Shown piece by piece: positions 2,582-17,625 of a stretch of DNA of 43,649 nt. Origin of the DNA: an uncultured Methanosarcinales archaeon. GTDB lineage: Archaea > Nanobdellota > Nanobdellia > Woesearchaeales > JACPBV01. The position numbers and the translations under genes are program-made. Position 1 is the first letter of the stretch. Each line of letters opens with the position of its first letter. The notes below the pieces were generated by a model that saw nothing but the letters and a program-made list of their open reading frames with translations, was not told the DNA's origin and did not search any database. The stretch spans positions 1 to 43,649 of the forward strand of contig CAZBLF010000006.1 in assembly GCA_964492935.1 (NCBI GenBank), read 5' to 3'.

Positions 2582-2797
2582 ATGACTTCACGCAACATTT
2601 CTATTATACCCAAGGCACCCATGGCTAGGATGCTTCTTAATGTAGGTGCCAAACGAGTTTCTCAACCAGCAATAGATGCATTTACCGATATCATAACAAG
2701 CAGAGCAGAGCATATTGCAGCAAAATCCATTCAAATAGCAAAGCATTCTGGAAGAAAAACCGTTCAAGGCGAAGATATCAAGCTAGCGGTCAAGTAA
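2582..2797 (+). CDS. Archaeal histone (HMf-like)
   Basis: 71 aa; IPKAPMARML...GAKRVS...AKHSGRKTVQGEDIKLA is the histone-fold signature. Confidence 0.95.
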   Translation: MTSRNISIIPKAPMARMLLNVGAKRVSQPAIDAFTDIITSRAEHIAAKSIQIAKHSGRKTVQGEDIKLAVK

Positions 2798-2799
2798 CG

Positions 2800-2807
2800 T
2801 TTAAAAA
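2800..2807 (+). promoter_or_regulatory. TATA-box-like element, possibly the ancestral tRNA-Ala promoter
   Basis: TTTAAAAA lies about 25 nt upstream of GGGCC (2832-2836), which matches the first five bases of tRNA-Ala. Confidence 0.4.
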
Positions 2808-2984
2808 CAGAGAGTTAATTCTTAAGGATACGGGCCTACAGTGAAGATTGGTAGAAACTATTAAATATTCAGTTTGTTTTCTCATTTAAAATCACAGATG
2901 AAGTGTTCAACCCTTAAATTTTAATTTACTTTTCAAGAAAATAAATCAATTAGAGGGTATCCAAAAGGATAAGAGTGATTATAA

Positions 2985-3998
2985 ATGAAATTAAAAGAAA
3001 ACAAAACATACAAATTCCACATTGGGCAACAATCGACATTAATTTCAAAGGCAGCTAGCAAAGCAGGATCAGTAAGAAATCTATCAATTAATTTAAGAAT
3101 TCCCGAGCGGACACTAAAGCATTACAAGGCCGAGGATTTTACTATTCCTTCTCTAAGACTACAACAATTAGTTGATTATCTTCAAATACAGTCAGGAGAT
3201 ATTTCTAAAATGATAAAAAAGGAATTACCCAGACATTGGGGATCTCGTCTTGGAGGACTGAAAACCTACTCAAAAAAGAATCGAAAGGATCTATTGAGAG
3301 ACATGAACTACATTAGATCTTTTAAGAAACCAATAATTTACGATAAGAAATTTCCCTTGACCAACTTTTTTTGTGAGTTTTATGGTATTCTGATGGGCGA
3401 CGGCTGCATTTCAAGCTATACTGACTACCAGGGTAACCGGAGATTGGACCTCATTATCACAGGTGACAAAAGATACGAAATGGCTTATTATCAATACATG
3501 AAAAAAAGGTTGAGGGAGGAATTCAATATCAATAGTTATATCTACCAATTGAAGAAGAGGAATTCTGTCAGACTCACAATAAGAAATAAGTATTTTAGCA
3601 ATTTTCTGATTAATTTTGGATTCCCTAAAGGAAATAAGTATAAGGTCTTAAGAATACCGCCACAAATTATGAAATTTAAGTGGGAAAAGCTAAAGTTCGT
3701 AATTCGAGGGCTTTTTGACACCGATGGGAGCATCTTCGCAAACAAAAATGAAGGATATAGATATCCATATATTTGTATCACATCTATAAGTGGGAAACTA
3801 CTGAATCAATTGTATGGAATCCTAAGAGCTAGAGGTTACCCGGTTTATCTCAGTAATGATAATCTTTTCATGAGGGGAATAGCGAATGTCAATAAATGGA
3901 TGAATGATGTTGGATCTTCCAACCCAAAACATAAATTTAAATACAACTACTGGACTTCAAAGGGCGTATTGCCTGCGAGATTATTATCGGGCCCGTGA
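2985..3998 (+). CDS. Free-standing double-motif LAGLIDADG homing endonuclease with N-terminal HTH-like extension
   Basis: Motifs FYGILMGDG and IRGLFDTDG; AT-rich. Stop TGA (3996-3998) lies inside the tRNA-Ala 5' end. Confidence 0.88.
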   Translation: MKLKENKTYKFHIGQQSTLISKAASKAGSVRNLSINLRIPERTLKHYKAEDFTIPSLRLQQLVDYLQIQSGDISKMIKKELPRHWGSRLGGLKTYSKKNRKDLLRDMNYIRSFKKPIIYDKKFPLTNFFCEFYGILMGDGCISSYTDYQGNRRLDLIITGDKRYEMAYYQYMKKRLREEFNINSYIYQLKKRNSVRLTIRNKYFSNFLINFGFPKGNKYKVLRIPPQIMKFKWEKLKFVIRGLFDTDGSIFANKNEGYRYPYICITSISGKLLNQLYGILRARGYPVYLSNDNLFMRGIANVNKWMNDVGSSNPKHKFKYNYWTSKGVLPARLLSGP

Positions 3999-4080
3999 TT
4001 CAACCCGGTACAATGCAAATTGCGGGAGAGAATACACCCATGGCATGGGTGCTATCCGAGTTCAAATCTCGGCGGGTCCA
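3989..4080 (+). tRNA. tRNA-Ala(GGC) with 19-nt D-loop intron (4010-4028)
   Basis: Acceptor GGGCCCG/CGGGTCC with G3:U70. Anticodon arm CACCC-ATGGCAT-GGGTG. T arm CCGAG-TTCAAAT-CTCGG. BHB-like CCCG/CGGG helix with GTA and AGA bulges; removing the intron restores ATTC-AACCCGGTA-GAAT. Confidence 0.93.
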
Positions 4081-4101
4081 CTTACTATCACCACATAAAA
4101 A

Positions 4102-4515
4102 ATGGAAAACGAATGTATTTTTTGCAAAATCGCTGAAGGAAAAATCCCAGCAACCAAAGTCCACGAAGACGATAAGCTATTGGCCTTCATGGACATAGCC
4201 CCTGCTAACGTAGGCCACACCCTAATCATCCCAAAAGCACACCATGAAATTCTAACCGATATCCCAGATGGGTTACTAACAGACATGACACTCTTAACCA
4301 AGAAAATAGCTAGAGCAACCCTTTCAGCACTAGGCGCAGAAGGCTTTAACGTTATGATGAATAACAAAGAGGTTGCAGGACAAGTAGTACCACACGCCCA
4401 CATCCATATTATCCCAAGATACAAGGGCGATGGCCAGCAAATTCACATAGCACCCAATCCAAGAGCAGCAGCATCAGTAGACGAAACCGCAGAGAAGATA
4501 AAGAAATTCTTATAG
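4102..4515 (+). CDS. HIT family hydrolase
   Basis: CIFCKI N-terminus, GHTLIIPK and the HAHIHII histidine triad. Confidence 0.95.
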   Translation: MENECIFCKIAEGKIPATKVHEDDKLLAFMDIAPANVGHTLIIPKAHHEILTDIPDGLLTDMTLLTKKIARATLSALGAEGFNVMMNNKEVAGQVVPHAHIHIIPRYKGDGQQIHIAPNPRAAASVDETAEKIKKFL

Positions 4516-4553
4516 AACCATAGATTTTTATACCATCCAAAGATTATATACTC

Positions 4554-5300
4554 ATGGTACTCATACCAACACTCATCAGCGTCATCATCGTTAGCTTAAT
4601 CTCATTAGTAGGAATCCTCTCCGTAATCGTATCCGGAAAGAACCTCAAAAAAATCCTAGTATTCTTTATCAGTTTCTCCGCAGGATCTCTTTTTGGAGGA
4701 GCCTTCTTCCATCTCTTACCCGAAGCAGCTGCAACACTAGGAGTAACATTACAATTTTCAGCCTCAATCCTAGCAGGCATTGTATTTTTCTACGTTCTAG
4801 AAAATTTCATCCACTGGCGACACTGTCACATTCCAACGAGCCACGACCATCCTCACCCGGTAGGCACCATGAGCCTTATTGGAGACGGATTACACAACCT
4901 CATCGATGGTATGGTCATAGCAGCATCCTATCTCATCTCCATTCCAGCCGGCATCGCAACAACCGTAGCCGTAGCCATCCACGAGATCCCTCAAGAGATC
5001 GGAGATTTTGGGGTATTGATTCATGCAGGATATTCAAAGGGAAAAGCACTCTTCCTCAATTTTTGTTCAGCATTGCTAGCAGTAGTGGGAGCACTCACCG
5101 TGTTAGCGATAGGTGCGAAATCTCAACTCTTCGCAACATTATTAGTGCCCTTCACCGCAGGCGGCTTCATCTATATCGCAGGAGCAGATCTCATTCCAGA
5201 ATTAAGAAAGGAAGTCTACCCCATGTCAAAATTACTCACCCAATTCGTTTTCTTCCTAGCTGGAATTGGAATAATGCTACTGTTAACTTTCATAGAATAA
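4554..5300 (+). CDS. ZIP family metal transporter
   Basis: HLLPEA, a His-rich loop, GDGLHNLIDG and HEIPQEIGDF motifs; multiple TM segments. Confidence 0.95.
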   Translation: MVLIPTLISVIIVSLISLVGILSVIVSGKNLKKILVFFISFSAGSLFGGAFFHLLPEAAATLGVTLQFSASILAGIVFFYVLENFIHWRHCHIPTSHDHPHPVGTMSLIGDGLHNLIDGMVIAASYLISIPAGIATTVAVAIHEIPQEIGDFGVLIHAGYSKGKALFLNFCSALLAVVGALTVLAIGAKSQLFATLLVPFTAGGFIYIAGADLIPELRKEVYPMSKLLTQFVFFLAGIGIMLLLTFIE

Positions 5301-5348
5301 CAACCTTTTTATAACAAATTCTGATTCTTTTTAATTGGTGCTGGAGAT

Positions 5349-5547
5349 GCCGGAGTTGCACGATTATGTGCTCCGAGAGCTCAGCCTGGTTAGAGCGCTA
5401 CATTGGATTTGTTTCCAAAGCGAGGCTCATATGTTTGAGCGCTGACCCGTAAGGGGATGACTCAAATCTAACTGGGTGACGTAGAGCAATCGAGAGAAAT
5501 CTCAATGCGCGAAAAAGTCGTGGTTTCAAATCCCACCTCCGGCACCA
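5349..5547 (+). tRNA. tRNA-Met(CAT), elongator type, with four predicted introns (5357-5377, 5402-5424, 5432-5478, 5485-5514); CCA encoded
   Basis: Spliced product GCCGGAG TA GCTC AGCCTGGTTA GAGC G CTACG CTCATAA CGTAG AAGTC GTGGT TTCAAAT CCCAC CTCCGGC A CCA folds as a cloverleaf. Three strict BHB motifs and one relaxed motif. Confidence 0.88.
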
Positions 5548-5613
5548 TTTTCTTTAAATTCACTTTTGGAATTCATTCAAATCACAAAAAGAAGGTAAAC
5601 ATCAAATAATAAT

Positions 5614-5704
5614 TTTCCACTTGCCAACTTAGGTTGTCAAGTCTGAAAGCAAAGAATTCTTACTCTTTAGGTATTCAAGAGGTAAAATCAATTTCCACTT
5701 GCCA
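5614..5704 (+). repeat. Direct repeat TTTCCACTTGCCA (5614-5626 and 5692-5704) upstream of the endonuclease gene
   Basis: 13-nt identity; each copy is preceded by GGTAAA(C)ATCAA. Confidence 0.7.
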
Positions 5705-5779
5705 CTTGCCAGGTGCGGCCGCAGCCTTCTTAAGGAAAATCAATTACAAAGTTTAATCAGTACTAGTAGATCGATTCAA

Positions 5780-6703
5780 ATGAAAAATATCCAAAAGGAA
5801 ATAATAGAAGTTATCAAGTATGTCCCGAGAGAGATTATCCCAAGACGCGGCCATCTGAAACCCCTCAGAGCAGAAGCAAAAGGTAATTCGATCATATTAA
5901 GCTGTAATCACTGTAAGCCAGTTAGAATCAAGAAAGAGATTACCCTCAGAGCAGACGAATACCAGGGAGTGGGACTCTATTTGGCAGAAGGAACGAAGTA
6001 TTACAACCTCAATAAGAAAACGCATCATTGCGGAGAAATAAGCTTTTCAAACTCATATCCTGAATGCATTTTAATCATCTCTAAACTATTTAGTAAATTC
6101 GGCATCAGTCCCAGAGAGTTAAGATGGAGGATTGGACTCAATATAAATCTTGAAGAGACGATTTCTAATGGGGAGTTAGCTGAATTCTGGATAGCCAGTG
6201 CGAAATTGGACAGATCTAAAGCCAGACCAAATGGATTTTACTTCAGTGGTAATAGGGGAAAACGACTCTCAAAAAATCCCGGAAATAAAGGATGCCTTCA
6301 TATCCATTACGCATCTACGATTCTGAGAAATGTTTTCACCTTCTTCATAACTAGAAAACTGGATGAGGCGATAGAAGAAAGGTCTGAATGGAAGTCAGCA
6401 ATGATCCTGAAGGGATTTTTCGCAGGGGATGGGTGTGTGACATATTCGAAAAAGCACAACGGAAGACAGGTAGAGTTCATATGTCATGACAAGATATTAA
6501 TCGAAAAACTTAGAAAATGCCTGCAAATTCTTGGGCTGAAATCCATAAAGGAAACCTGGCCTGCTACTACAAAGACCCACTCCAAGGCGTTGCGCATTTA
6601 CAACACACATGATTTTAGAATTCTAGAGAAATACGAGATTCTAGAACTCATCCCACACAAACGCGAAGTGTTCAAGAAACTGCTTAAATCATTACCACCA
6701 TAA
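5780..6703 (+). CDS. Free-standing double-motif LAGLIDADG homing endonuclease-like protein
   Basis: Motifs GVGLYLAEG and LKGFFAGDG. ATG 5780 is preferred over TTG 5699. Confidence 0.8.
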   Translation: MKNIQKEIIEVIKYVPREIIPRRGHLKPLRAEAKGNSIILSCNHCKPVRIKKEITLRADEYQGVGLYLAEGTKYYNLNKKTHHCGEISFSNSYPECILIISKLFSKFGISPRELRWRIGLNINLEETISNGELAEFWIASAKLDRSKARPNGFYFSGNRGKRLSKNPGNKGCLHIHYASTILRNVFTFFITRKLDEAIEERSEWKSAMILKGFFAGDGCVTYSKKHNGRQVEFICHDKILIEKLRKCLQILGLKSIKETWPATTKTHSKALRIYNTHDFRILEKYEILELIPHKREVFKKLLKSLPP

Positions 6704-6766
6704 CTCCCGGCACTTTTTTATTCTTCAAACGCAACATTAAAATACTCCAATCCACGAATTAAGAGA

Positions 6767-7390
6767 GTGAAAAAAGAAATCATTCCAGCAATCATAGTAA
6801 AGAACCAAAAAGACCTAGACGTAGCTCTCGTCAAGGCAAAATTCGCAAAACGAATCCAAATTGACATCATGGACAACAAGTTCGTAAAAAACTCCTCCCT
6901 CCAGTTCAATTTCAAGCTCAAAACAAAAGCAAAAGTTGAAGCACACTTAATGGTACAACATCCATTACAATGGATAAAAAACCATGCCTCCAAAGTAGAC
7001 GTCATCCTCTTCCAGCACGAATCTAAAGATAACAACGAAGAAGTAATCAAGGCCATCAAAGCAGCAAAAAAAACACCCGGAATAGTAATCAATCCAGAAA
7101 CAGAGATACAAGAAATCGAACCAATCCTAAGCAAAGTAAAGGAAGTCCTAGTAATGACCGTCCATCCCGGATTCTATGGCAGCAAGTTCGTCCCAGAAAC
7201 ACTCAAAAAAGTAACCCAACTCAGAAAATTAAAACCCGCTCTAAACATCGAAGTCGACGGCGGAATAACAAACAAAACAATAGCAAGAGCAAGCAAAGCA
7301 GGAGCTAATTTATTTGTCTCCGGCTCTTTCATCATGAAAAGCCCAGAACCCGAAAAGGCTGCGAAAGAACTTGAGAAACTAATCCATTAA
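6767..7390 (+). CDS. rpe: Ribulose-phosphate 3-epimerase
   Basis: IQIDIMD, EAHLMV, VMTVHPGFYG, IEVDGGI and FVSGS motifs. Confidence 0.93.
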   Translation: MKKEIIPAIIVKNQKDLDVALVKAKFAKRIQIDIMDNKFVKNSSLQFNFKLKTKAKVEAHLMVQHPLQWIKNHASKVDVILFQHESKDNNEEVIKAIKAAKKTPGIVINPETEIQEIEPILSKVKEVLVMTVHPGFYGSKFVPETLKKVTQLRKLKPALNIEVDGGITNKTIARASKAGANLFVSGSFIMKSPEPEKAAKELEKLIH

Positions 7391-8604
7391 CTCCCTCTAC
7401 CTCTCAACTCATTACGAATTTCTTGAGGGGTAATCCCCTTCTTCGCCATCAGCAACAAGAGAAAGTACTGCAAATCAGCGATCTCCCAGACTAAATTATC
7501 TCGAGAGGTATAAGAAACCACTTCCTGAGTCTCCTCACTAATTTTCGCCATGATCTCGTTCTCACTAGCCGAAAGAGCAGAAGTATATGAACCCGCGAGC
7601 GGATTTTCAACTCTATCTCGCACCACTGAATACAAATCATCCAGGCAGTATTCTTTATCTCCAAAGCAAGAATACGAAGCAGTGTGGCAAGCAACATTCG
7701 TCTGCCGAACCGTAAACAAGAGGGAATCTCGATCACAATCATAACGTACGTTCAATAATTCCTGGAAATTTCCAGACGTCTCACCCTTCGTCCAAAGCTT
7801 GTTACGAGACCTACTGAAATACGTAGCCCTCCGAGAGGAGAAGGTCTTAAGAAGAGATGCAGAAGAAGAAAAAGCAAACATCAGCACCCTACCAGTATCA
7901 TCCTGAACAATAGTAGGGATCAACCCTTCCGAAAAATCTAAAAGCGAAACAAACGTTGCAGACAAAGAAATCTTTTCTGTATAGAGTGCCATCCCTATCT
8001 GCGAATTACATCCCATCTCCTCCAGGCGCAACACATCCTCCTGCGTGGTAACCCCTCCAGCAACCGTCAATGTATTGGCAGTACTCTTTCGAAGTTGATT
8101 AATCCTCTCCCAATCAACCCCCTGCATCATTCCCTCTTTATCTACATCAGTGAACAAAAATTCAGAGCAATACGGCTCGAGTAATCTCATCCTTTCCTCA
8201 ACCGCAACTCGAGTATCATTCCGCCACCCCTCATCGACCACACTTCCCTTAACAGCATCCACAGCAACAATCACCTTATCCCTAGGGAGCTGCTTCAAGA
8301 AGGAAACCTCTGCCCGAGTACCAATAATGATTTTCGAAGCTCCAGCCCTCAGCAGTTCCTTAGCTCGACCAACACTGCGAATGCCTCCACCTACCCTACA
8401 CGATGCAATGCTACAAAGCTCCTTTACCAGAGCAAGGTTGTCACCTCTACCCAGAGCAGCATCCAAATCAATCACAGCAATCTCGCCATACATCCGAAAT
8501 TCCTCAGCTAACGCTATAACATCCGAGCGTTCCAAAACTTTCTTCTTACCTTGAACGAGTTGAACCGCCTTCCCCTCCATGAGGTCAATACTAGGAATCA
8601 TCAT
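7387..8604 (-). CDS. hisAIE: Trifunctional HisA-HisI-HisE fusion
   Basis: N-terminal [14 protein letters not shown] and VGGGIR (HisA); KGETSGN...DCDRD...ACHT...SCF (HisI); SYT...KISEE...EIADL (HisE). Confidence 0.9.
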
Positions 8605-9356
8605 TGTCGCACCTCCATACTATTACCAATAAGGGCCTTTTTGACATCACCAATCGTACATTCGCCAGTGTGAAACAGAGAGGCAGCCAGAGCAGCATCT
8701 GCCTTTCCAAAAACAAAAACTCCACTAAAACTCTCGAAGGAACCAGCCCCACCTGAAGCAATCACCGGAATACCTACTGCAGTAGCCACCTGCATCGTCA
8801 AATAACTGTCAAATCCCTGACGAGTACCATCTCGGTCCATAGAGGTTAATAATATCTCACCAGCACCAAGTTTCTCAGCTTTCCGCGCCCACGCAACGAC
8901 ATCCTTGCCGGTATTCTCTCGACCACCCTTGACAAAAACCTCCCACCCTACCCCTTTCTGCTTTGCATCAATAGCAACAACAATACACTGCGAACCAAAA
9001 AGAGCAGCAGCCTCACTAATCAAAGATGGATTTTTCACCGCAGCCGTATTCAGTGAAACCTTATCAGCACCAGCCTGTAACAAAGCCCGAATATCCGAAA
9101 TACTAGATATACCTCCCCCGACCGTAAAAGGGATGAACACCTCCCGAGCAACCTTTCGAACAACATCAATCATCGTTTTCCGACCCTCACACGATGCAGT
9201 AATATCCAAAAGAACAAGTTCATCGGCACCCTGCTCGTTATACTTCTTAGCAAGTGCCACCGGATCTCCAGCATCCCGCAAGCTAAAAAAGTTTAGACCT
9301 TTCACAACCTTTCCATCCTTCACATCTAGACAAGGAATGATTCTTTTAGCTAACAT
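8601..9356 (-). CDS. hisF: Imidazole glycerol phosphate synthase cyclase subunit
   Basis: [39 protein letters not shown]. Confidence 0.97.
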
Positions 9357-9931
9357 AGCAACCACCGTTCCAAAAACTGTAGTCCATAGTCACCAGACTT
9401 TTCTGGGTGGAATTGAACTGCAGTAATACTGCCAGATTCAACCGTACACGCAAACGAACAACCATACTCCGAAGTTGCAGTAACAATAGCTGGATCAGCA
9501 GGAACCACATAATATGAGTTAGCAAAATAACCGTATCCCTTCGCCAGCAAGCTGGGAGGGCAAGGCAATATGGTATTCCATCCCATCTGAGGAACCTTTC
9601 CAAGATTGAATTTCTGGACAGAACCCTTCAACACCCCGAGCCCAGAAACTCCTGGACTCTCCTCACTTGTTTCAAACAACGCCTGCATTCCAAGGCAGAT
9701 GCCAAGAAAGGGCTTACCTGAGGATAAATAATCCTTCAATACCTCAATCAACCCCTTTTCACGCAAAGCCTCCATCATCGCTCCGAATGCACCTACGCCA
9801 GGTAATACAACCCTATCTGCGGCACCTATATTCGATGCAGAGGAAGTGATGACCGATTCCACTCCAAGACAATCTAGTGCATTCTTCACACTTTGCACAT
9901 TCCCTATCCCGCAGTCTATTATCGCTATCAT
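9350..9931 (-). CDS. hisH: Imidazole glycerol phosphate synthase glutaminase subunit
   Basis: [32 protein letters not shown]. The ATG overlaps the hisB stop (ATGA). Confidence 0.96.
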
Positions 9932-10527
9932 CGTAAGATCCCCTTTACTCCCGCAATCGCATTCTTCCTCCAAGGAGTATCCCGAAAGCAATCCCTGATG
10001 GCCTCTCCAAGCGCTCTGAACACGGTTTCCCAGATGTGGTGCGGATCATAGCCCTCCAACACCTTAACCTGAATCGTAGCCTGCATTCCCTGTGCCAACC
10101 CTTCAATGAAATTCTGCAAATCACATCCCTTCATATCCTCGACATTCCGAACAAAGGCTTTCTTACCCTTCAAGTCCACGAACGAGTTACTACGACCCTC
10201 AAAACTCACACAAACGACAGATAAAGCTTCATCAAGAGCAGCAACGCTATATCCACTTCCTCGAACCCCCTTGGGAAGTTTCTGTTCAAAAAGTCGAGCA
10301 AGGGCCCTACCTAAAACTAACCCACTATCTTCAGCAATAACGTGCTCAAGTTTGAAGTTAGTCATAGCAACAGCTACATCCATGTTCATGCAAGCTCTCC
10401 ACGCAATAGTTTCAATCATGTGGTTCAAAAATTGCAGTCCCGTATCTATCTTGAACTCTCTCCGCGGCAATTCATCTACCTGAACCACCACCTCTGATTC
10501 CCTTGTTGTTCTTTTTTCTTCTATCAT
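9928..10527 (-). CDS. hisB: Imidazoleglycerol-phosphate dehydratase (divergent)
   Basis: RTTRES, TGLQFLNHM, LDEAL and DPHHIWE motifs; operon context. Confidence 0.9.
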   Translation of the reverse strand: MIEEKRTTRESEVVVQVDELPRREFKIDTGLQFLNHMIETIAWRACMNMDVAVAMTNFKLEHVIAEDSGLVLGRALARLFEQKLPKGVRGSGYSVAALDEALSVVCVSFEGRSNSFVDLKGKKAFVRNVEDMKGCDLQNFIEGLAQGMQATIQVKVLEGYDPHHIWETVFRALGEAIRDCFRDTPWRKNAIAGVKGILR

Positions 10528-11834
10528 TTCAACCTCCGATCGACAGATGCCCTGTGAGCATCCAGTCCCTCTACATCCGCTATCCTATTCACAATCGGTT
10601 GCAACTTCCGCAACCCCATCTTACTCACATCCGAATACTGAACACGCTTCATAAATGTCCAAACTCCAACTGCTGAAGTCCTTTTAGCCCACCCACTCGC
10701 GGGCAGGATGTGATTAACTCCAGACGCATAGTCTCCTAAGGCAACAGGATTATACATCCCCAAAAAAACACTGCCAGCATTTGTTATCTGTTCTAAGACG
10801 AGACGTGGATTCTCAGTAAGAATCTCCAGGTGCTCAGGAGCATACGAGTTAGTGAACTCAACAGCCTCATCCAGCGTATCAACGAGCAGGATACCGCAAT
10901 AATTTTTCAAAGCACTTTGAAGATACTCTTTCCGGGAAAGCAGCTCAAACTGTTTCTTAATCTCCTCTTGAGTAAGGCGAGCAAGCTTCCCTGAAGTCGT
11001 CACCAGCACCGCAGCAGAATCAGGTCCGTGTTCTGCCCGAGCCAGGATGTCGGCAGCACAATACTCAGCTTTTTTCTGAAGATCAACACCTTTAGATAAA
11101 CCCCCATCAGCAATAATGACGGCCTCACTCGGACCTGCAGGCATATCAATAGCAACCCGCTCCTGACAGAGAATCTTTGCAGCAGTCACCCACGGACTTC
11201 CCGGTCCAGCAATCAGTTCAACGGGTTTAACTGTCGAAGTTCCATATGCAAGCGCAGCAATCGCCTGAGCACCGCTCATACGATAGATCTCCGTAACGCC
11301 ACACTCAGCTAACGCAACAAGCGTCTCATACTGATTTCCTTTTGGAGAGATTGCAGCAACAATTCTACCACTACCTGCCAGCACCGCAGGAACTGCTAGT
11401 ATTTGTGCAACCGTGGGAAACGGATTCTTCCCACCAGGAATATACAGTCCAACCGCCTCTATCGCAGTCCATTTCTCTCCAACAACAATGCCCTCGCCAG
11501 TAGTACCTTCCCAATCCTGGATGGCAGATCGCTGCCTCTCGTGGAACCGCTGCGCATACCGAATCTGCTCCCTGATTGCAGAAAGAACCTCTGGAAGAAT
11601 ATTTTCGTACGCTTTCTCAATCTCTTGCGCATCAACACACAGCATACTCTTCTGAAAAGCTGCATCATCAAATTTCTGTGCATAGCGAACCAAAGCTGAA
11701 TCTCCCTCAGCCCTTACCTCTTGAATGATAGCTCTAACCGCTACCTTAACCTCCTCCAACTCATTCTGCGACCGCAGCAACAGACGTCGAAATGCCCGAC
11801 TCTTCTTATCCCTCATCGAATACCTTCTTATCAT
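10524..11834 (-). CDS. hisD: Histidinol dehydrogenase
   Basis: VGLYIPGG, GAQAIAALAYGT, DMPAGPSE, AEH, APEHL, GDYASGVNHILP, EGLDAH. Confidence 0.95.
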   Translation of the reverse strand: MIRRYSMRDKKSRAFRRLLLRSQNELEEVKVAVRAIIQEVRAEGDSALVRYAQKFDDAAFQKSMLCVDAQEIEKAYENILPEVLSAIREQIRYAQRFHERQRSAIQDWEGTTGEGIVVGEKWTAIEAVGLYIPGGKNPFPTVAQILAVPAVLAGSGRIVAAISPKGNQYETLVALAECGVTEIYRMSGAQAIAALAYGTSTVKPVELIAGPGSPWVTAAKILCQERVAIDMPAGPSEAVIIADGGLSKGVDLQKKAEYCAADILARAEHGPDSAAVLVTTSGKLARLTQEEIKKQFELLSRKEYLQSALKNYCGILLVDTLDEAVEFTNSYAPEHLEILTENPRLVLEQITNAGSVFLGMYNPVALGDYASGVNHILPASGWAKRTSAVGVWTFMKRVQYSDVSKMGLRKLQPIVNRIADVEGLDAHRASVDRRLK

Positions 11835-13079
11835 TTTATTACCTCCAAAAAATCCAGAATTTGGTTTACATCCTCAAGCACCTGTTCGGCACCCTCCAAC
11901 TTAAACGTGAAAGTAGAACTTTTGACCCCTACAAAGCGAACATTGGCAGCTTTCGCCATCATCGCATCAGCAGGCAAATCTCCAACATAGACTATCTCTT
12001 GCAATCCCAGCTTTTTCCGAGCGAGAGTCAATCCATCAGCACAGGGCTTCTGCCTATCCTCAGAAAGATCATCCCGAGTAATAAGGACCTCAAAATAGTC
12101 AAGCAATTTATATTTTTTTAAGGTAGAAACTGCCTCATCTCGTGGTCTACCCGTAACAATTCCCAATGAAGCTCTAGAAGAGAGACTTTGCAAAGTACCT
12201 TCATTAACAAGCAAACGCTCTTTATTCCAGATCTCCCGAGAGAGATAACGCTGAAACACTTCCACTATTTCCTCAAAATCCACCTCAACACCCTCTCTCC
12301 GCAGCAGTTCCCTACAACAATCCCACTCGTTATTGAATCCACTTTGCTTCACGGCAGCAAACTCCAGTAATGCAACAGGACGCTTCAGAAATTGACCAAC
12401 GGTTTTGCAAGATGCTACTCCATACGATTCGCTACTATCAACCAACACCCCATCCATATCAAAAACAATTGATTGCCGAACGGGAGAACCAAGAATAACA
12501 AAATCACTTTGAGCGATGAGGTCATACACTTTCAATCCACATTGTTCTAGCGTTTTTCCTGTATAGACGATGTCGATGACCAAATCAGCAATGCCTTCCT
12601 TACAACTTACCTCCACGCACCCGTTGACATAAATTTTCTTGAAAGTATACCCATTCTGCTCAAGAAAGTTAAGATACGATTTTCCAAGATTTTTATATTT
12701 AGCCGCAATACAAACAGTAAGGCGTTTCGGAAGATCTTCAAGATTCCTATCTTTAGGACCTAATAAACAAAGAGCAGGCTTACCATATTTTGCCCGAGCA
12801 TCATTCCAAGGAATCCTAGCAAGAATGGTAGGGGGAACAGTACTCTGTTGAGCGCAATATTCATCATACAAATCCTCTCCCGTTAACCCAATGACCTTCT
12901 TTCCCTTACCCTGAAACTCTTCTACCCAAAACGGGACATCCTCCCCTCTCACCTCAAGTATTTTTGAGGAGTCAACATTCTGAAGACTAGGAAGTGCTTT
13001 TTCCCTATATTCTTGCAGTCCGCCATTCTTCGGAACGACAATGAATACAATCCTTAGCGTTAACTAACGAGTCTACCAT
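11831..13079 (-). CDS. hisG: Short-form ATP phosphoribosyltransferase fused to a HAD phosphatase; predicted to need a +1 frameshift at 13043 (about 415 aa)
   Basis: Frame is open from 13063 to 11831 with IVVPKNG, VRGEDVP, GLTGEDL, NGCVEV, DIVYTGKTL, then FDMDGVLVD...KP...VGD (HAD). No in-frame ATG/GTG/TTG precedes the conserved N-terminal strand. The RBS-preceded ATG at 13079 is in another frame. Confidence 0.85.
13005..13079 (-). promoter_or_regulatory. Leader ORF 2 (MVDSLVNAKDCIHCRSEEWRTARI*) with a single His codon
   Basis: GGAGGTGA RBS (13091-13084) 4 nt before the ATG; TGT ATT CAT T at 13049-13040. Confidence 0.75.
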
Positions 13080-13105
13080 AAACTCACCTCCAAGGGAACA
13101 GAAAG

Positions 13106-13177
13106 GGCGGTAGCCGAGAATCGAACTCGGACCGCAAGGCCCACAACCTTGTATTCTACCAGTAAACTACTACCGCC
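13106..13177 (-). tRNA. tRNA-His(GTG), intronless, G-1 encoded
   Basis: G GCGGTAG TA GTTT ACTGGTA GAAT A CAAGG TTGTGGG CCTTG CGGT CCGAG TTCGATT CTCGG CTACCGC C, with G-1:C73. Confidence 0.95.
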
Positions 13178-13244
13178 ATAAGAAATATCAACAAAAGAAC
13201 TCAAACAAGAACAAAAACTTAAACTACTAAAATTAGACTCACAA

Positions 13245-13307
13245 CTACCAAGAATGAATACAACCAGCGTCGGTGACGCCTTTGTCCTCAAGTAATACGG
13301 TGTTCAT
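13245..13307 (-). promoter_or_regulatory. Leader ORF 1 (MNTVLLEDKGVTDAGCIHSW*), probably leaderless, with a single His codon
   Basis: ATG lies 30 nt from the start of a TATA box; TGT ATT CAT T at 13262-13253. Confidence 0.7.
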
Positions 13308-13325
13308 AAAAAAGAAGAAGTGCAA

Positions 13326-13349
13326 CTTTATATTTAAGTCTTTTCATTC
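13326..13349 (-). promoter_or_regulatory. BRE/TATA promoter for the leader-tRNA-His-his operon
   Basis: Minus strand GAATGAAAAGAC-TTAAATATAAAG: a purine-rich BRE followed by a TATA box. Confidence 0.65.
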
Positions 13350-13370
13350 ATCAAGAGGAAGTAGCAAAAA

Positions 13371-14246
13371 TCATTCAACAATAGCCTTTATCTCAGAACC
13401 AAACATTTCTGAAGCACGCTTAACATACTCCTCAATATTATCAGTAAAGTACGGCGGATGCTGTTTCTGAATATTACCAATAACGAAATAACCAATTGCC
13501 ATCAGGGCAGCATACGAAGCATCAGCAGGCAACGGAATGTCCAAGCGATGCTTCCCAAACTGTGAATTCGAATCACCAAACGAAATAAATAATTCTTTGT
13601 CATTAGGAACAACCGTTTTAGCATGTTTTGTCTGATCCACAGTAAAAACACGCCCATTCACAACGGACCCAAACAACTCATCGAATTTAGTCAGCAACAT
13701 CTCTCGCATCGCATCAAAACGAGAAGGAACAATCAAATAGAACGCAGAATATGAAGCAAAGTCCTTAGGTATCAAAGGAACAACCTCTTTTTTGATAAAC
13801 TCCAAAATCGCAGCAGGATCTTCTTTTGTTTTTCCCAAAATCATGCTCATATACGTCGAAGTATTGTAGGTATACGGCTCAGCCTGTTTCGGAAACACAA
13901 ACGTCTCATGCACGAGCGTTTTAGCAGGCGCATCTGTATTACACGTCAACAGCCGAGTCTCAATTTTCAATCGCTTCAATTCCTTAGCAATAATCGGAGC
14001 ATGTTTAGCACCCGATGCCGAAATCAAGATAGCACCATCCACAATATCCAAATTATCCCGATACGTACCCTCATCCGCAAACACCGCATCAGAACCCTCC
14101 ATAATGATTCTACCCGTAGCAGCAGCATTACCTGAACCAACAACAAGAGGACGATCATAGGAACCAAGATGCAATTCAGGAATACCTTCAGCAATAAACA
14201 GCTGCAATGCAGATAGTACACATTCATCCAGACCAATAATCTTCAT
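13371..14246 (-). CDS. SIS-domain (sugar isomerase-like) protein
   Basis: VVGSGNAAATG and ILISASGAK resemble SIS phosphosugar-binding loops; substrate cannot be determined. Confidence 0.55.
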   Translation of the reverse strand: MKIIGLDECVLSALQLFIAEGIPELHLGSYDRPLVVGSGNAAATGRIIMEGSDAVFADEGTYRDNLDIVDGAILISASGAKHAPIIAKELKRLKIETRLLTCNTDAPAKTLVHETFVFPKQAEPYTYNTSTYMSMILGKTKEDPAAILEFIKKEVVPLIPKDFASYSAFYLIVPSRFDAMREMLLTKFDELFGSVVNGRVFTVDQTKHAKTVVPNDKELFISFGDSNSQFGKHRLDIPLPADASYAALMAIGYFVIGNIQKQHPPYFTDNIEEYVKRASEMFGSEIKAIVE

Positions 14247-14303
14247 AAGAAAAAATAAATCAAAATTCCTTTTTATATCTTTTGTTAAACCTCAAAAATA
14301 AAG

Positions 14304-15203
14304 TTATGGCTTAACATTAAGAGTAAATTCCTGTGTAATGCCTGAAGCAGTGCCATCATAATACATCTCAATCTGACACAAGTGATTACCAGAGGAAATA
14401 TCATCTGGCAACGTAACAATGGCAGCGAACTGTTCATCATCCGCAACCGCAATGGGCTTAGCATTTACCTGTACCGTTAAATCTCCAACCTGTTGCGTAA
14501 CGGGCTGAATCGAGCTATCACCATCAGAACCACTTCCCACCCCAACACCACTAGGACTATCGACACATTCAGAAAGATCACTGCCCACAGCACCATATCC
14601 ATCGAAATCATCATCAGAGCAGGCAGTGCAAGGAGTAGCTAAAACCGCTCCAGAACTACTCTTGAGCTGAATATTATCCACATACACTTTCGCCCATCCA
14701 CCTGTCTGAGCATTTTCTATCAGGATACTTACCTCAACCCCCTCATACCCAGACAATCCTAGACAACCAACTGAGGCGAAAGTATCGGAATCATGACCAT
14801 GTACATTTGTACAAAGAATCGAGGCATCGCTTGAACGTATGACTGATAGGTGAGCATTATCAGCCCCCCCAGCTCGTAAAAAGGTAATGCGATCAATTCC
14901 TACCGGGAGGGTAAATAGGGGGCTAATCATAGAACCGGTCGTCCCATCACAACCTACTTTGATATATTTCGTTCCATCAATAGCGTTTGCAGCTCTACTA
15001 CTATCTCCACAACGAATATCATTCCCCTCTACAACGCCAGCATCACCTGAGCAAGTCCACCCCGGAGGACAGTTGAGGGGATCGACGTCTTCAAAACTGG
15101 TGAAGGTGACTTCTAAAGGGCAATCACAAAAAGATCCTACACAGGGACTAGCAGAAACCGAAGGCAGAACTACGAGCACAATCACTATCGCCCACCATTT
15201 CAT
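14304..15203 (-). CDS. Secreted Cys-rich beta-domain protein
   Basis: MKWWAIVIVLVVLPSVSA signal peptide at ATG 15203; DDDFDGYG acidic motif. Confidence 0.6.
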   Translation of the reverse strand: MKWWAIVIVLVVLPSVSASPCVGSFCDCPLEVTFTSFEDVDPLNCPPGWTCSGDAGVVEGNDIRCGDSSRAANAIDGTKYIKVGCDGTTGSMISPLFTLPVGIDRITFLRAGGADNAHLSVIRSSDASILCTNVHGHDSDTFASVGCLGLSGYEGVEVSILIENAQTGGWAKVYVDNIQLKSSSGAVLATPCTACSDDDFDGYGAVGSDLSECVDSPSGVGVGSGSDGDSSIQPVTQQVGDLTVQVNAKPIAVADDEQFAAIVTLPDDISSGNHLCQIEMYYDGTASGITQEFTLNVKP

Positions 15204-15556
15204 GAACATGTAATCACCGGATACGCCTGATCCCAATCCTCATTAGTGGGATTTCGAGCACCCACATCAACTCTAAACGTACTTCCTGCCTCCGCAATCA
15301 CAACCTCCTTAGAAATGACATACTCCCAAAATGAATCCAGCTGAAGTTGGGGGTATTCTGCCTAAGATTTTATAACCAAGGGGTCACTAGGAAGGGGACT
15401 CAACAAAGGGCCACGGGGAGATGCCTGCTCCTCAAACTGAGTTGCCGATTTAGAAAAATTACCTCGAATGAATCCAATCAGCAATCCTAAAATAACAATA
15501 GCTAAAATAATGGTAACAATCGCTGTCGTTGATAGCGTCATAGCTCCTTTCTTCAT
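15200..15556 (-). pseudogene. Class III signal-peptide (pilin-like) gene interrupted by an in-frame TAG (15364-15362)
   Basis: MKKGA/MTLSTTAIVTIILAIVILGL N-terminus. The same frame continues 53 codons past the TAG (...VISKEVVIAEAGSTFRVDVGARNPTNEDWDQAYPVITCS*). Confidence 0.5.
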
Positions 15557-16293
15557 GTGTGCACCTTGTGCATTTTTTGTTCATGTGCACTATGAAGAGT
15601 AGCAACAATCACATGTTCTTTCCAACCGCGATCCATCAGTGCCGGAACGACTGACTGCATCAGCTGCTCACGAGTATATCCTTTCTGTAACAACATCGAA
15701 AAATATTGCCGCAATCGCAGCTGAGGATCATGTAATCTCCTCTTTCGAGAAACCTCTGCAATCCCCATCCCGACAATCCCCAATGCCCCCACGCCTACGA
15801 ACACCATCACAATAAAAGAGAGCGGACTTTCCGGAGCAGGTTGTTCAACCACAAGCACCTCTTCCTGCAACGGAGTCTTCAACACATCCACTCGACGTTG
15901 TATCCCTGCAAGCATCCCTTGGTGTATCTGCGCCCGATCCGAGATTACGAATAACTTCAAACCCCGAAAAGTATCTATGCGCAACAAAGAAGGCTTTGTA
16001 AAATTCCACACAGCAAGAAAGGGAGAATGAGGACTACTCACCACGATAGTCTTATCAAAACGAGGAACGATCGAGGGATCCAAAAACAACACCTTTACAC
16101 CCAACGACTTCTGCAACTCCAAAGCAGCGCTACGAATCTCATCTTCAAGCGTCAAGTCCACAAGCATACTATACTCAGAAGGTTCGTCCAGCACCATCGA
16201 CAGGAAATCATCCAATCCATCAGCATGCACAGTAATAGCACCAAGAACCAATATCAGAAAAACTACCAAAAAACCGCGGCCTAAACCCCCCAT
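15553..16293 (-). CDS. Hypothetical membrane-anchored protein
   Basis: N-terminal signal peptide, one TM helix near residue 165, short helical C-terminal domain. Confidence 0.65.
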   Translation of the reverse strand: MGGLGRGFLVVFLILVLGAITVHADGLDDFLSMVLDEPSEYSMLVDLTLEDEIRSAALELQKSLGVKVLFLDPSIVPRFDKTIVVSSPHSPFLAVWNFTKPSLLRIDTFRGLKLFVISDRAQIHQGMLAGIQRRVDVLKTPLQEEVLVVEQPAPESPLSFIVMVFVGVGALGIVGMGIAEVSRKRRLHDPQLRLRQYFSMLLQKGYTREQLMQSVVPALMDRGWKEHVIVATLHSAHEQKMHKVHT

Positions 16294-16359
16294 ACCTCAA
16301 TCATGACATTTGCCCTATAAATAGCTTACGAAAAAAACGCCAGCCCCCAAAAAAATAAA

Positions 16360-16473
16360 CGCCACCGCCCGGATTCGAACCAGGATATCCAAAGGAAAGA
16401 CGCTCTCACGATGATGTCCTGAGCAAGCTCAAGATTTCGAGGCGACCGCAATACCAGATTATGCGACAGTGGC
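16360..16473 (-). tRNA. tRNA-Ser(CGA) with 31-nt canonical 37/38 intron (16405-16435)
   Basis: GCCACTG/CGGTGGC acceptor, G73, long variable arm, CT-CGA-A loop, CCTGG-TTCGAAT-CCGGG T arm. Confidence 0.9.
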
Positions 16474-16679
16474 ACAATCATCAAAAACAGCTGCTAGAAT
16501 AAAAAGGTAATGAAAAATCAATCTCCTAACGAAGCGTGAAGTGATTCAGCTTGCTTTCTCACTTTCTTTTCCATAGATAACACTTTTTGCGACATGTCGA
16601 CCGGCTTCTTAGTCGCCGCGACTACACCATAGGAGCAGTAAAAATAAAATGGTGAAGCCACATATGGCCTCACCAATAA

Positions 16680-16806
16680 CGCTGCGACTCGGATTTGAAC
16701 CAAGATAGGCCGAAGCCAACAAGCTGTCTGGTACGATTTTCCAAGCCTACGCCTTCTTTATCGAGGATAAAAAAGTTTGCGCAGTACCAGATTGTGCCAT
16801 CGCAGC
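16680..16806 (-). tRNA. tRNA-Ser(GGA) with two introns: 29/30 (16747-16776, 30 nt) and 37/38 (16726-16738, 13 nt)
   Basis: GCTGCGA/TCGCAGC acceptor, G73, long variable arm. BHB helices GCGC/GCGT and TTGG/CCAG. Spliced anticodon arm CAAGC-TTGGAAA-GCTTG. Confidence 0.9.
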
Positions 16807-16807
16807 A

Positions 16808-17512
16808 CTAGTTTTTCAATTCCGCCTTTTTATTTAAACCTAATGTTTTTGAGAGAGTGTTTGATTTTTTAGAATGCCAAAATCCAATTTTCTGGCGAAA
16901 CAATTCCCGAGACTTCTTTTTATTGATGAAGATAATGCTTACAGGAGAATGCTTTTTATTCTTTGGCAGATATTCATAACACCGATGATCTATTTCCATT
17001 TCTCGAAGCAATTGTGAAACCTGACCCATGCCCTTTTTATTTATTGTCTGAATCTTAATACATTTGGGACCAACATAAGCTTCTGCAGAAAAGAAAGCTC
17101 GTAACCAAGCTTCTTTAGCCCCATTAATTTTAAAAAGTTTCCAGGGCAAACTCCAATCCAACAGACCGAAGGTTGAATGTTCAATCAAATCTTCGTATAT
17201 GGTGCGAGAGGTGAGCCGCACGTAGTAAAAATTGTTTCTCAATTTTATTGAAAAAATCCTCCCGTACACATGTTTCATCGCACCACAAAAATATTCAAGC
17301 ATCTCAGGATCATCCGGGAAAAATTTTATTTCATGGTGTACATTTGACTTTTCTTTTCTCAATTTTACACTCCCATCTCCCGCTAGAAAGCCACATATCG
17401 CCGCCTTATTAATCAGGGATTCGGCATCGGATCGGATATTTGCTCTTTCTTTACCATGTACTTTGGACCAGCGAGCCAAAGCAACTTTTCTGTTTCTATC
17501 TGAATATTTCAT
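16808..17512 (-). CDS. Free-standing double-motif LAGLIDADG homing endonuclease
   Basis: Motifs ICGFLAGDG and LRAFFSAEA. The stop lies 1 nt upstream of tRNA-Ser(GGA). Confidence 0.85.
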   Translation of the reverse strand: MKYSDRNRKVALARWSKVHGKERANIRSDAESLINKAAICGFLAGDGSVKLRKEKSNVHHEIKFFPDDPEMLEYFCGAMKHVYGRIFSIKLRNNFYYVRLTSRTIYEDLIEHSTFGLLDWSLPWKLFKINGAKEAWLRAFFSAEAYVGPKCIKIQTINKKGMGQVSQLLREMEIDHRCYEYLPKNKKHSPVSIIFINKKKSRELFRQKIGFWHSKKSNTLSKTLGLNKKAELKN

Positions 17513-17625
17513 ATGTAGTCACTCATTATCTAAATATTTAAATGTTTCTAATAGAAAGCAGTACCAGAATAATTTGCAAAAACTATTTAAAGGAGATTAT
17601 TAAAAGTATTAATATTGCTACTAGT

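Follow-up and report, generated by a model that had tools for sequence, protein, structure and literature searches.

Free-standing LAGLIDADG genes beside intron-bearing tRNA genes of a DPANN archaeon suggest how odd tRNA introns may spread

How introns at odd positions come to interrupt archaeal tRNA genes, and how such genes become fragmented, is a question about two decades old; intron transposition and protection against integrating elements are among the earlier proposals. The question arises again in a contig of 43,649 nt (CAZBLF010000006.1, contig C6 of the genome; hereafter the window) from an uncultured archaeon, whose relatives carry labels of Woesearchaeota and other DPANN archaea in public records. 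Three open reading frames (ORFs) of the LAGLIDADG family stand free in the window, each beside a tRNA gene that carries non-canonical introns of the bulge-helix-bulge (BHB) type. This adjacency, together with the extra introns, suggests how odd tRNA introns may spread. We consider it probable that the three ORFs are free-standing LAGLIDADG homing endonuclease genes (HEGs) with homing sites in tRNA genes, and that they form cassettes travelling with introns. A first-pass annotation of the window had advanced the idea as collaborative homing. We followed it through the whole genome (G000; 1.15 Mb in 57 contigs, 84.8% complete), through a sister species of the same genus (G001; about 77-81% DNA identity, 80% complete) and through more distant genomes.

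Performing Pfam searches, we found LAGLIDADG_3 (PF14528) as the sole domain of the three genes; a GIY-YIG domain was not found. Gene 1 (2985-3998, + strand, 337 aa) matched with E 9e-10 and has an N-terminal extension of about 125 aa. Gene 2 (5780-6703, + strand, 307 aa from its ATG) matched with E 1e-14, scored on the longer frame 5699-6703, and gene 3 (16808-17512, - strand, 234 aa) with E 5e-12. Their translations and alignment show two LAGLIDADG motifs in a single chain for each gene, with an acidic residue present in both motifs of all three (GDG and DTDG in gene 1, AEG and GDG in gene 2, GDG and AEA in gene 3). Gene 3 aligned across both motifs to the endonuclease domain of PI-PfuI (1dq3, E 1.6e-5), and genes 1 and 2 had no sequence match in the PDB. 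Gene 1 overlaps the first 10 nt of tRNA-Ala, its stop codon (3996-3998) being tRNA positions 8-10. The ATG of gene 2, which lines up with the ATGs behind other copies of a leader described below, lies 233 nt past the end of tRNA-Met, and the stop codon of gene 3 falls 1 nt before the start of tRNA-Ser(GGA). Domain matches, motif pairs and positions thus bear out what the annotation had read from the window: the three ORFs are double-motif LAGLIDADG genes adjoining tRNA-Ala(GGC), elongator tRNA-Met and tRNA-Ser(GGA).

Most tRNA genes of this kind escape standard tRNA finders. In the window, ARAGORN detected one of the five (tRNA-His only), and Rfam detected tRNA-His and the two tRNA-Ser genes. 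Using a covariance model built from five intron-less tRNAs of the genome and a T-arm/acceptor script, we located 36 tRNAs genome-wide; the model detected tRNA-Ala, and the script together with sister-species alignment detected tRNA-Met. The tRNA-Ala(GGC) gene (3989-4080, + strand; covariance model R1, 41.5 bits; G3:U70 pair and anticodon read) holds a 19-nt intron at 20/21 (window 4011-4029), whose BHB was identified by hand and whose position agrees with the sister-species D-loop. Elongator tRNA-Met(CAT) (5349-5547, + strand) has four inserts. Those at 8/9 (21 nt), 30/31 (23 nt) and 37/38 (47 nt) are strict BHB introns; the fourth, of about 29 nt near 44/45, was revealed by comparison with the sister species, and a strict BHB was not found in it. 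The tRNA-Ser(GGA) gene (16680-16806, - strand; Rfam 31.7 bits) is interrupted by two BHB introns, one of 30 nt at 29/30 and one of 13 nt at 37/38. Our strict rule required a central helix of 4 bp flanked by two bulges of 3 nt, with cuts placed after the second base of the bulge; 10 introns passed the script, and the tRNA-Met insert near 44/45 and an insert in tRNA-Arg-GCG failed. Removing the introns restores an intact cloverleaf, with exons that align to intron-less sister-species orthologs, and the genome has one gene for the splicing endonuclease (EndA; PF01974 match, 219-aa frame). Judged from their sequence, the inserts are genuine BHB introns. The annotation had correctly named those at Ala 20/21, Met 8/9 and 30/31, and Ser 29/30; the Met insert that it had put at 43/44 lies near 44/45 by our reading and is the one without a strict BHB. 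Its claim that the other two tRNAs of the window have neither a non-canonical intron nor an abutting HEG also stood, tRNA-His (13106-13176) being intron-less and tRNA-Ser(CGA) (16360-16473) having a single insert (about 30 nt) located at the canonical site or beside it.

Does the adjacency reach beyond the window? Searching all six-frame ORFs of the genome with the LAGLIDADG_3, LAGLIDADG_1 and LAGLIDADG_2 profiles, phmmer and jackhmmer, we found 18 non-intein LAGLIDADG ORFs and two inteins. For ten of the 18, one of the 36 located tRNAs is no more than 250 nt away, where chance would give a mean of 0.75 for 18 random intervals (maximum 5 in 5000 trials; binomial 5e-10). Three of the ten (on C3, C10 and at C1:63477) were detected by phmmer/jackhmmer only; the C1 ORF gave no Pfam match at E 0.001, and both of its motifs are visible by eye. 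Six ORFs are co-oriented with their tRNA (Ala, elongator Met, Ser-GGA, Gln-TTG, Tyr-GTA and initiator Met) and four are convergent with it (Lys-CTT, Asn-GTT, Leu-TAG and Leu-CAA). The annotation had called its three genes all co-oriented with their tRNAs, a pattern that is true within the window and fails genome-wide.

Several of these ORFs reach into the tRNA gene itself. The Gln-adjoining ORF places its stop codon at tRNA positions 8-10 (G000 C16:9421-9423) just as gene 1 does, and both the Ala- and the Gln-adjoining ORFs extend into the tRNA acceptor stem. The convergent ORFs end within the tRNA 3′ half on the opposite strand, and one C-terminus resembles a translated T-arm.

We then set these tRNA genes against those of the sister species, in which a LAGLIDADG_3 profile search of the 80%-complete genome gave no matches. 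The sister tRNA-Ala is a 73-nt intron-less gene 34 nt after the histone gene, with no endonuclease gene; here the same tRNA has the endonuclease gene and the 20/21 intron. Likewise, the sister sites are empty and intron-less for Gln (endonuclease gene and 21/22 intron here), Ser(GGA) (endonuclease gene and 29/30 and 37/38 introns here; 84 nt in the sister) and initiator Met (endonuclease gene and 29/30 and 37/38 introns here). All four empty sites were read across contiguous sequence. At these four sites the comparison of HEG-plus and HEG-minus alleles suggested with the annotation finds its HEG-free, intron-less partners in the sister species. The endonuclease genes are optional and lie outside the tRNA. 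Four further tRNAs differ between the two genomes. tRNA-Lys (endonuclease gene and 22/23 intron here) is intron-less in the sister, on a contig that ends 52 nt past the tRNA. tRNA-Tyr has an extra 19-nt intron at 35/36 here and the canonical intron only in the sister, whose HEG-free status at this site comes from the family search alone. tRNA-Ile has extra inserts near 31/32 and 45/46 here, placed by alignment only, and the canonical intron only in the sister. Elongator tRNA-Met of the sister is without the 8/9 and 44/45 inserts, and a decayed endonuclease C-terminal piece adjoins it. At this sister locus (L036, G001:C77, about 290-430) the LAGLIDADG piece is short, has the conserved leader before it and is convergent with tRNA-Met. 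We therefore take it that the locus was invaded there too and that the gene has since decayed.

Is the presence of an endonuclease gene associated with odd introns in numbers? Relative to the sister species, extra non-canonical introns occur in 8 of 10 abutted tRNAs and in 5 of 22 others (Fisher p = 0.005); a conservative tally gives 8/11 and 6/22 (p = 0.024). Initiator tRNA-Met allowed a wider count. Among 29 abutted initiator tRNA genes (28 loci and this genome), in which several Micrarchaeota loci share one intron position and are probably not independent, 21 have an intron at linear index 24-32 (about standard positions 22-30), and four have introns only at 38/39 or 55. As an order-level control, we took 91 genomes, one per family. 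In 37 of them the initiator tRNA-Met was one uninterrupted 75-nt match, around which we examined 1500 nt on each side (7 loci were shortened by contig ends). Nine genomes had an interruption in the zone; six of these had a LAGLIDADG-like ORF within 300 nt, one had none and two were at a contig edge. An endonuclease gene thus adjoins 6 of 7 initiator genes with a zone intron and 1 of 37 intron-less ones (Fisher p = 7e-6), and p becomes 6e-5 with the two contig-edge genomes counted as HEG-free. A survey of HEG-tRNA adjacency against intron status, which the annotation had put forward as a check of its idea, is therefore positive for initiator tRNA-Met. T-arm introns were split evenly, two with an endonuclease gene and two without.

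More distant relatives show to which tRNAs the enzymes keep. Using four of the proteins as queries against one genome per species, we obtained 424 relatives and kept the best 80. A tRNA lies within 400 nt in 66 of these 80 loci, 43 being found by the model (within 300 nt) and 23 by the script. Among the best 80, the records carry both archaeal labels (Woesearchaeota, Pacearchaeota, Nanoarchaeota, Micrarchaeota, Aenigmarchaeota, Nanohaloarchaeota and Altiarchaeota) and bacterial ones (Patescibacteria, Omnitrophota and Nitrospirae). The initiator-Met clade, with 40-58% identity to the gene of this genome, stands beside initiator tRNA-Met in 31 loci, in either orientation. In a class sample of 400 other genomes (401 with this one), relatives of gene 3 occur in 19, and 19 of 19 adjoin a co-oriented Ser-like class II tRNA, lying 0-31 nt upstream of it or overlapping it by 3 nt; 12 of these 19 tRNAs have an intron at linear index 20-26. 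Relatives of gene 2 were present in five of the 400, four of them beside a tRNA. One relative in another family (L258) repeats the layout of tRNA-Met and then the gene, and from its 5′ end that tRNA may likewise have an insert at 8/9. For gene 1, a close ortholog was not found in the 400 sampled genomes (best 39% identity), and 19 of the 22 loci with its relatives are beside assorted tRNAs. The testable clades each keep to one tRNA across distant genomes.

The distribution of the genes is patchy. They occur in 20/401, 20/401 and 6/401 genomes, this genome included (the Ser clade of gene 3 being in 20/401), and the close initiator-Met clade (at least 52% identity) occurs in 4/91. Several copies are split or truncated or contain an in-frame stop, and such broken copies fit the decay phase of selfish endonuclease genes. 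These data bear on the possibility that the LAGLIDADG proteins are domesticated and immobile, acting in a maturase-like manner to assist the folding or processing of the neighbouring intron-rich pre-tRNA. LAGLIDADG maturases exist for group I introns; the linkage to intron-bearing tRNAs is tight, and the initiator-Met clade holds 50-58% identity across DPANN phyla, as a helper might. We nevertheless find the proposal scarcely credible. Helpers would not be expected in so few genomes (4/91 for the close initiator-Met clade, 20/401 for the Ser clade), as broken copies, or beside intron-less tRNAs and in bacteria, and the sister species splices nothing extra and needs none. The acidic catalytic residues are retained, and insertion footprints are present.

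We read these footprints from the flanks: three of the genes (at Leu-TAG, Ser-GGA and Ala) have displaced fragments of the resident tRNA on their far side. At Leu-TAG, an exact 18/18-nt copy of the sister-type tRNA 3′ end and trailer stands at C1:63506-63523, beyond the far end of the gene, and the working tRNA-Leu(TAG) at C1:64388-64471 is a different allele with an acceptor stem unlike the resident type. Therefore, the cassette came with a foreign tRNA-Leu allele, and the resident one was displaced. At Ser(GGA), homology of the flank to the sister ends at window 17577; next comes an exact 11-nt piece of the tRNA (17558-17568, - strand, positions about 16-26) upstream of gene 3, and then gene 3, and 769 nt here replace about 109 nt of the sister. 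At Ala, a decayed 5′ leftover (2832-2858, + strand, positions 1 to about 27) has about 15/27 matching positions; the evidence is positional, the piece beginning 34 nt past the histone-gene stop, which is the exact start of the intact sister tRNA-Ala. A 9-nt near-copy of tRNA-Met positions 1-9 (5340-5348, + strand), directly before the tRNA gene and absent from the sister, is a possible leftover. Two other insertions are clean and lie 4-14 nt past the tRNA 3′ end, of 808 nt at initiator Met and 1372 nt at Asn. Generic local alignment around 8-11 loci found no tRNA leftovers above shuffled controls; the pieces emerged by positional comparison with the sister species. As a whole, the footprints point to cassettes bringing their own tRNA copy. 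We also entertained that the ORFs lie inside giant tRNA introns and set this aside: the upstream Ala piece is decayed, and with the 3′ end no acceptor stem is possible.

Some of the cassettes share one further component. Gene 2 is preceded by a promoter-like leader (5575-5779, + strand), whose recurring region is about 150 nt long. Besides conserved boxes, it contains a 17-nt tandem motif that is invariant and stands just upstream of a TATA-like box, and it has a ribosome-binding site ahead of the ATG. Ten copies occur in the genome: seven before LAGLIDADG genes, two before tyrosine recombinase genes and one with no gene nearby. The seven LAGLIDADG genes behind it have a mutual protein identity of only 20-30%. 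Besides the copy in the window, we located copies at C8:8508-8692, C3:9794-9909, C36:5331-5407, C11:16158-16251, C9:31058-31085 and C16:10154-10185, those before the tyrosine recombinase genes at C42:6088-6194 and C57:85-191, and the geneless one at C27:9756-9860. This last copy is followed by about 490 nt free of ORFs (C27:9860-10347) and then by a Sua5/YrdC-like gene; the stretch could be an unrecognised RNA gene or a dead cassette. Leader copies occur in the sister species too. Our guess is that the leader serves as a common promoter and operator. On C57, a contig of 1.7 kb, an ORF with a DUF559 domain (Vsr-like endonuclease fold; C57:1123-1467) stands directly behind the tyrosine recombinase gene.

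The leader and the partial tRNA copies recall an element of Caldiarchaeum subterraneum. The available part of its description (Sugahara et al. 2012, PMC3293823) gives, for tRNA-Thr(GGU), a 5′ tRNA fragment and then an insertion of 1868 bp that extends into the new tRNA as far as position 27, an intron at 24/25 included. That insertion consists of a nucleotide-conserved repeat and an ORF of 813 bp from a family alike only at the protein level; a classifier placed the ORF under 'DNA-binding or recombination', and the authors proposed a recombinase or integrase and a plasmid origin (PMC3293823, same part). The leader here parallels 'region a' of that element, and tRNA leftovers ending near positions 26-27 and divergent ORFs are likewise common to both; the likeness is one of layout, with the ORF compared by its published description alone. 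Following the 2012 model, a recombinase would insert into the tRNA and make partial copies and introns, and the LAGLIDADG gene would be cargo. Partial tRNA copies do flank three cassettes, the promoter-like leader also precedes two tyrosine recombinase genes, and the architecture agrees with what PMC3293823, as far as available, describes. Against this, the inserted stretches of 770-1370 nt contain the leader and the endonuclease gene only, and neither a tyrosine nor a serine recombinase was found within them. The two Phage_integrase (PF00589) matches of the genome are on other contigs (C42 and C57) and not beside tRNAs, in keeping with the annotation, which had seen no integrase or transposase in the window. 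Moreover, each endonuclease clade follows its own tRNA across phyla. We regard an integrase-type element as very unlikely.

How, then, would a cassette of the kind that we favour, moved by its own endonuclease, spread? Its components are the endonuclease gene and, in some cases, a promoter-like leader of its own. It stands right at the border of one specific tRNA gene, and the two would therefore be inherited together. The enzyme would cut a tRNA allele without the cassette, the carrier allele would be the template for repair of the break, and repair would copy the cassette along with part or all of the carrier tRNA gene, introns included. With a foreign donor, one junction would fall outside homology, and a displaced piece of the resident tRNA would be left beyond the cassette. 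We infer cleavage, its site and the immunity of the carrier from the arrangement of the loci. Indirect support for a cut near the intron site comes from the tRNA leftovers, whose ends fall near positions 26-27, and from the clustering of introns at about 20-32. The carrier allele must escape its own enzyme, and we suggest two routes. By the first, a BHB intron would split the tRNA gene in the zone from the D-arm to the anticodon stem (about positions 20-32) and would be taken out of the RNA by the splicing endonuclease and ligase of the host. By the second, an imported tRNA allele would have changed stem sequences, as in Leu-TAG. On this reading, the non-canonical introns are passengers of the cassettes and probably their shields, and shielding of the carrier allele by an intron is plausible. 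Intron-less carriers exist, and so the intron is not the sole route to immunity, if it is one at all.

That last reservation leads to a reading in which the introns protect nothing. The enzymes would target tRNA genes or their borders, insertion of the cassette would itself destroy the site, and the introns would be co-converted features of the donor. Such hitch-hiking accommodates the clean insertions 4-14 nt past the tRNA 3′ end, the ORFs whose ends fall within tRNA nt 1-10 or, on the opposite strand, overlap the tRNA 3′ end, the intron-less carriers in archaea and bacteria, and the intron-less foreign Leu-TAG allele. It leaves unexplained the 9-nt zone that holds an intron in 21 of 29 abutted initiator tRNA genes, set against the 37 uninterrupted control genes. 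Also, an intact tRNA copy brought by the cassette would rebuild any site inside the gene. We consider hitch-hiking alone rather unlikely.

A number of observations weigh against cassettes with shielding introns as well. Carriers without odd introns form one group: the abutted Leu-TAG is intron-less, the abutted Leu-CAA (whose ortholog was not found in the sister species) has the canonical intron only, 4 of the 29 abutted initiator tRNA genes and 4 of the 19 Ser-like tRNAs beside gene 3 relatives are intron-less, and the bacterial copies that we read (L117, L121, L126, L129, L131, L136, L137, L144-L148 and L150) sit just upstream of co-oriented class II tRNAs of 84-91 nt with no BHB introns. 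tRNA-Asn shows the reverse of the expected pairing, with the canonical intron only and an endonuclease gene 17 nt away here, and an extra D-loop intron and no endonuclease gene in the sister. Odd introns without a neighbouring endonuclease gene form another group: Thr-GGT, Arg-TCT, Gly-TCC, Arg-GCG and Trp have genome-specific non-canonical introns here, and one genome of the order-level sample has a zone intron with no endonuclease gene. The sister has introns not in this genome (Arg-CCT, Gly-GCC, the Asn D-loop and a T-loop intron in Ala-TGC), and gain here is indistinguishable from loss in the sister without an outgroup. The counts themselves carry limits. In three of the six HEG-bearing genomes of the order-level sample, the intron position was set solely by the end of a BLAST match; for about 15 initiator tRNA genes with the canonical intron only, the HEG neighbour was checked by one protein query only; and the Ala footprint is statistically weak, generic local alignment giving it no significance. 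Finally, positions 20-32 commonly hold non-canonical archaeal introns anyway.

The intron-less carriers and the HEG-free introns speak against collaborative homing in a strict form, and the idea of the annotation is supported in part. What stands is that the genes lie outside the tRNA, are optional and co-occur with introns; at all three window loci, the endonuclease gene lies next to, and not within, a gene whose introns contain no ORF. Collaborative homing is the best-fitting model, with a central step that we infer.

A broader form of this model can be held more tentatively. Non-canonical BHB introns, and perhaps the fragments toward split tRNAs, might arise and spread mainly via an arms race with free-standing LAGLIDADG endonucleases, a view to which we give somewhat less than even credence. 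Each enzyme clade would home to one tRNA, and an intron in the D-arm to anticodon-stem zone would make the carrier uncuttable. Naive alleles would acquire the intron by gene conversion that the enzyme induces, whether or not the endonuclease gene comes along, and HEG-free tRNAs with such introns would be the survivors of past invasions. On this view, the first example in print would be the Caldiarchaeum element of 2012, though its nature went unrecognised.

LAGLIDADG genes of this genome adjoin other conserved genes as well. A LAGLIDADG gene at C9:31121-31825 (+ strand) overlaps the 5S rRNA gene at C9:31783-31896 (- strand) convergently by about 43 nt; therefore, the habit of parking at gene borders extends to 5S rRNA. 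Five of the 18 ORFs adjoin conserved protein genes, two flanking carB and the others being by the SRP54 (C8:7405-8484), RsmB-like (C8:18472-19551) and YchF-like GTPase (C36:4149-5291) genes. At the carB locus (L001, G000 C2:52873-59679), LAGLIDADG genes with a helix-turn-helix stand one between carA and carB and one after carB. The 23S rRNA gene (L003, G000 C18:7000-10000) has two LAGLIDADG ORFs inside introns (C18:7487-8080 and C18:8917-9213); a group I intron model also matched there weakly (30 bits, under the Rfam cut-off). The two intein-like LAGLIDADG_3 ORFs, C3:978-4085 (1035 aa) and C11:22801-25287 (828 aa), have hosts that look helicase-like and pseudouridine-synthase-like by eye only.

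The surroundings of the three window genes are ordinary, with a histone-fold gene, HIT, a ZIP transporter, ribulose-phosphate epimerase and a MazE/AbrB-like gene. A 5-kb stretch is present, whole or in part, in 20 metagenome runs of 18 studies, which sampled marine sites, seawater and hydrothermal vents; no RNA run was listed among them. Contigs of four runs from four studies repeat the carrier junctions (3375-4529, 2726-3199 and 5115-7400 among others) with 0-4 differences, and a HEG-less junction was not seen in the contigs of these four. Two joints reported for metagenome contigs had sides of 21 nt and very high depth, and we took them as unrelated repeats.

How do these genes compare with known systems? 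Archaeal LAGLIDADG enzymes such as I-DmoI and I-PorI are encoded within BHB introns of rRNA. They have the enzyme family, the kind of host intron and stable-RNA targets in common with the genes described here, and the genome itself has the two ORFs in 23S rRNA introns. They differ in that the window genes lie outside the intron and the RNA gene, and that the introns here are far too short for an ORF. Collaborative or trans homing is described for phages in the available part of PMC2988022, with F-CphI and psbA in cyanophage S-PM2 and mobE and the nrdB intron in T4. There, as here, a free-standing endonuclease gene adjoins a gene with an ORF-less intron and is inherited with it (PMC2988022, same part). 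The phage introns are self-splicing group I introns, whereas the introns here belong to the archaeal BHB type, are 13-50 nt long, interrupt tRNA genes and are spliced by proteins; the hosts here are cellular DPANN archaea, the endonuclease family is LAGLIDADG, and cleavage at the intron site is putative. The same part of PMC2988022 describes intronless homing by T4 SegB, a free-standing HEG between tRNA genes that targets the region and co-converts neighbouring tRNA genes. SegB resembles the present genes in being a free-standing homing endonuclease gene at tRNA genes. In contrast, it is a single GIY-YIG phage enzyme with no introns involved, whereas here many clades are each tied to one tRNA. 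Our search, which left most subscription journals outside, found no publication that connects free-standing LAGLIDADG genes with tRNA genes of archaea or with the BHB introns in them. Nor do the reviews and papers that it turned up bring homing endonucleases into this context, and in the parts available of PMC4090602, PMC4033280 and PMC4390854 the term homing endonuclease does not occur.

The loci offer the old question of odd tRNA introns and tRNA gene fragmentation a concrete agent, namely endonuclease clades each tied to one tRNA, together with natural carrier and empty alleles and introns of a size suited to synthesis. The enzymes further provide a set of compact nucleases whose natural targets are conserved. 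If the shield model is true, collaborative homing would extend from the group I introns of phages to the protein-spliced introns of cellular organisms, and there would be a selective reason for the presence of introns in essential tRNAs.

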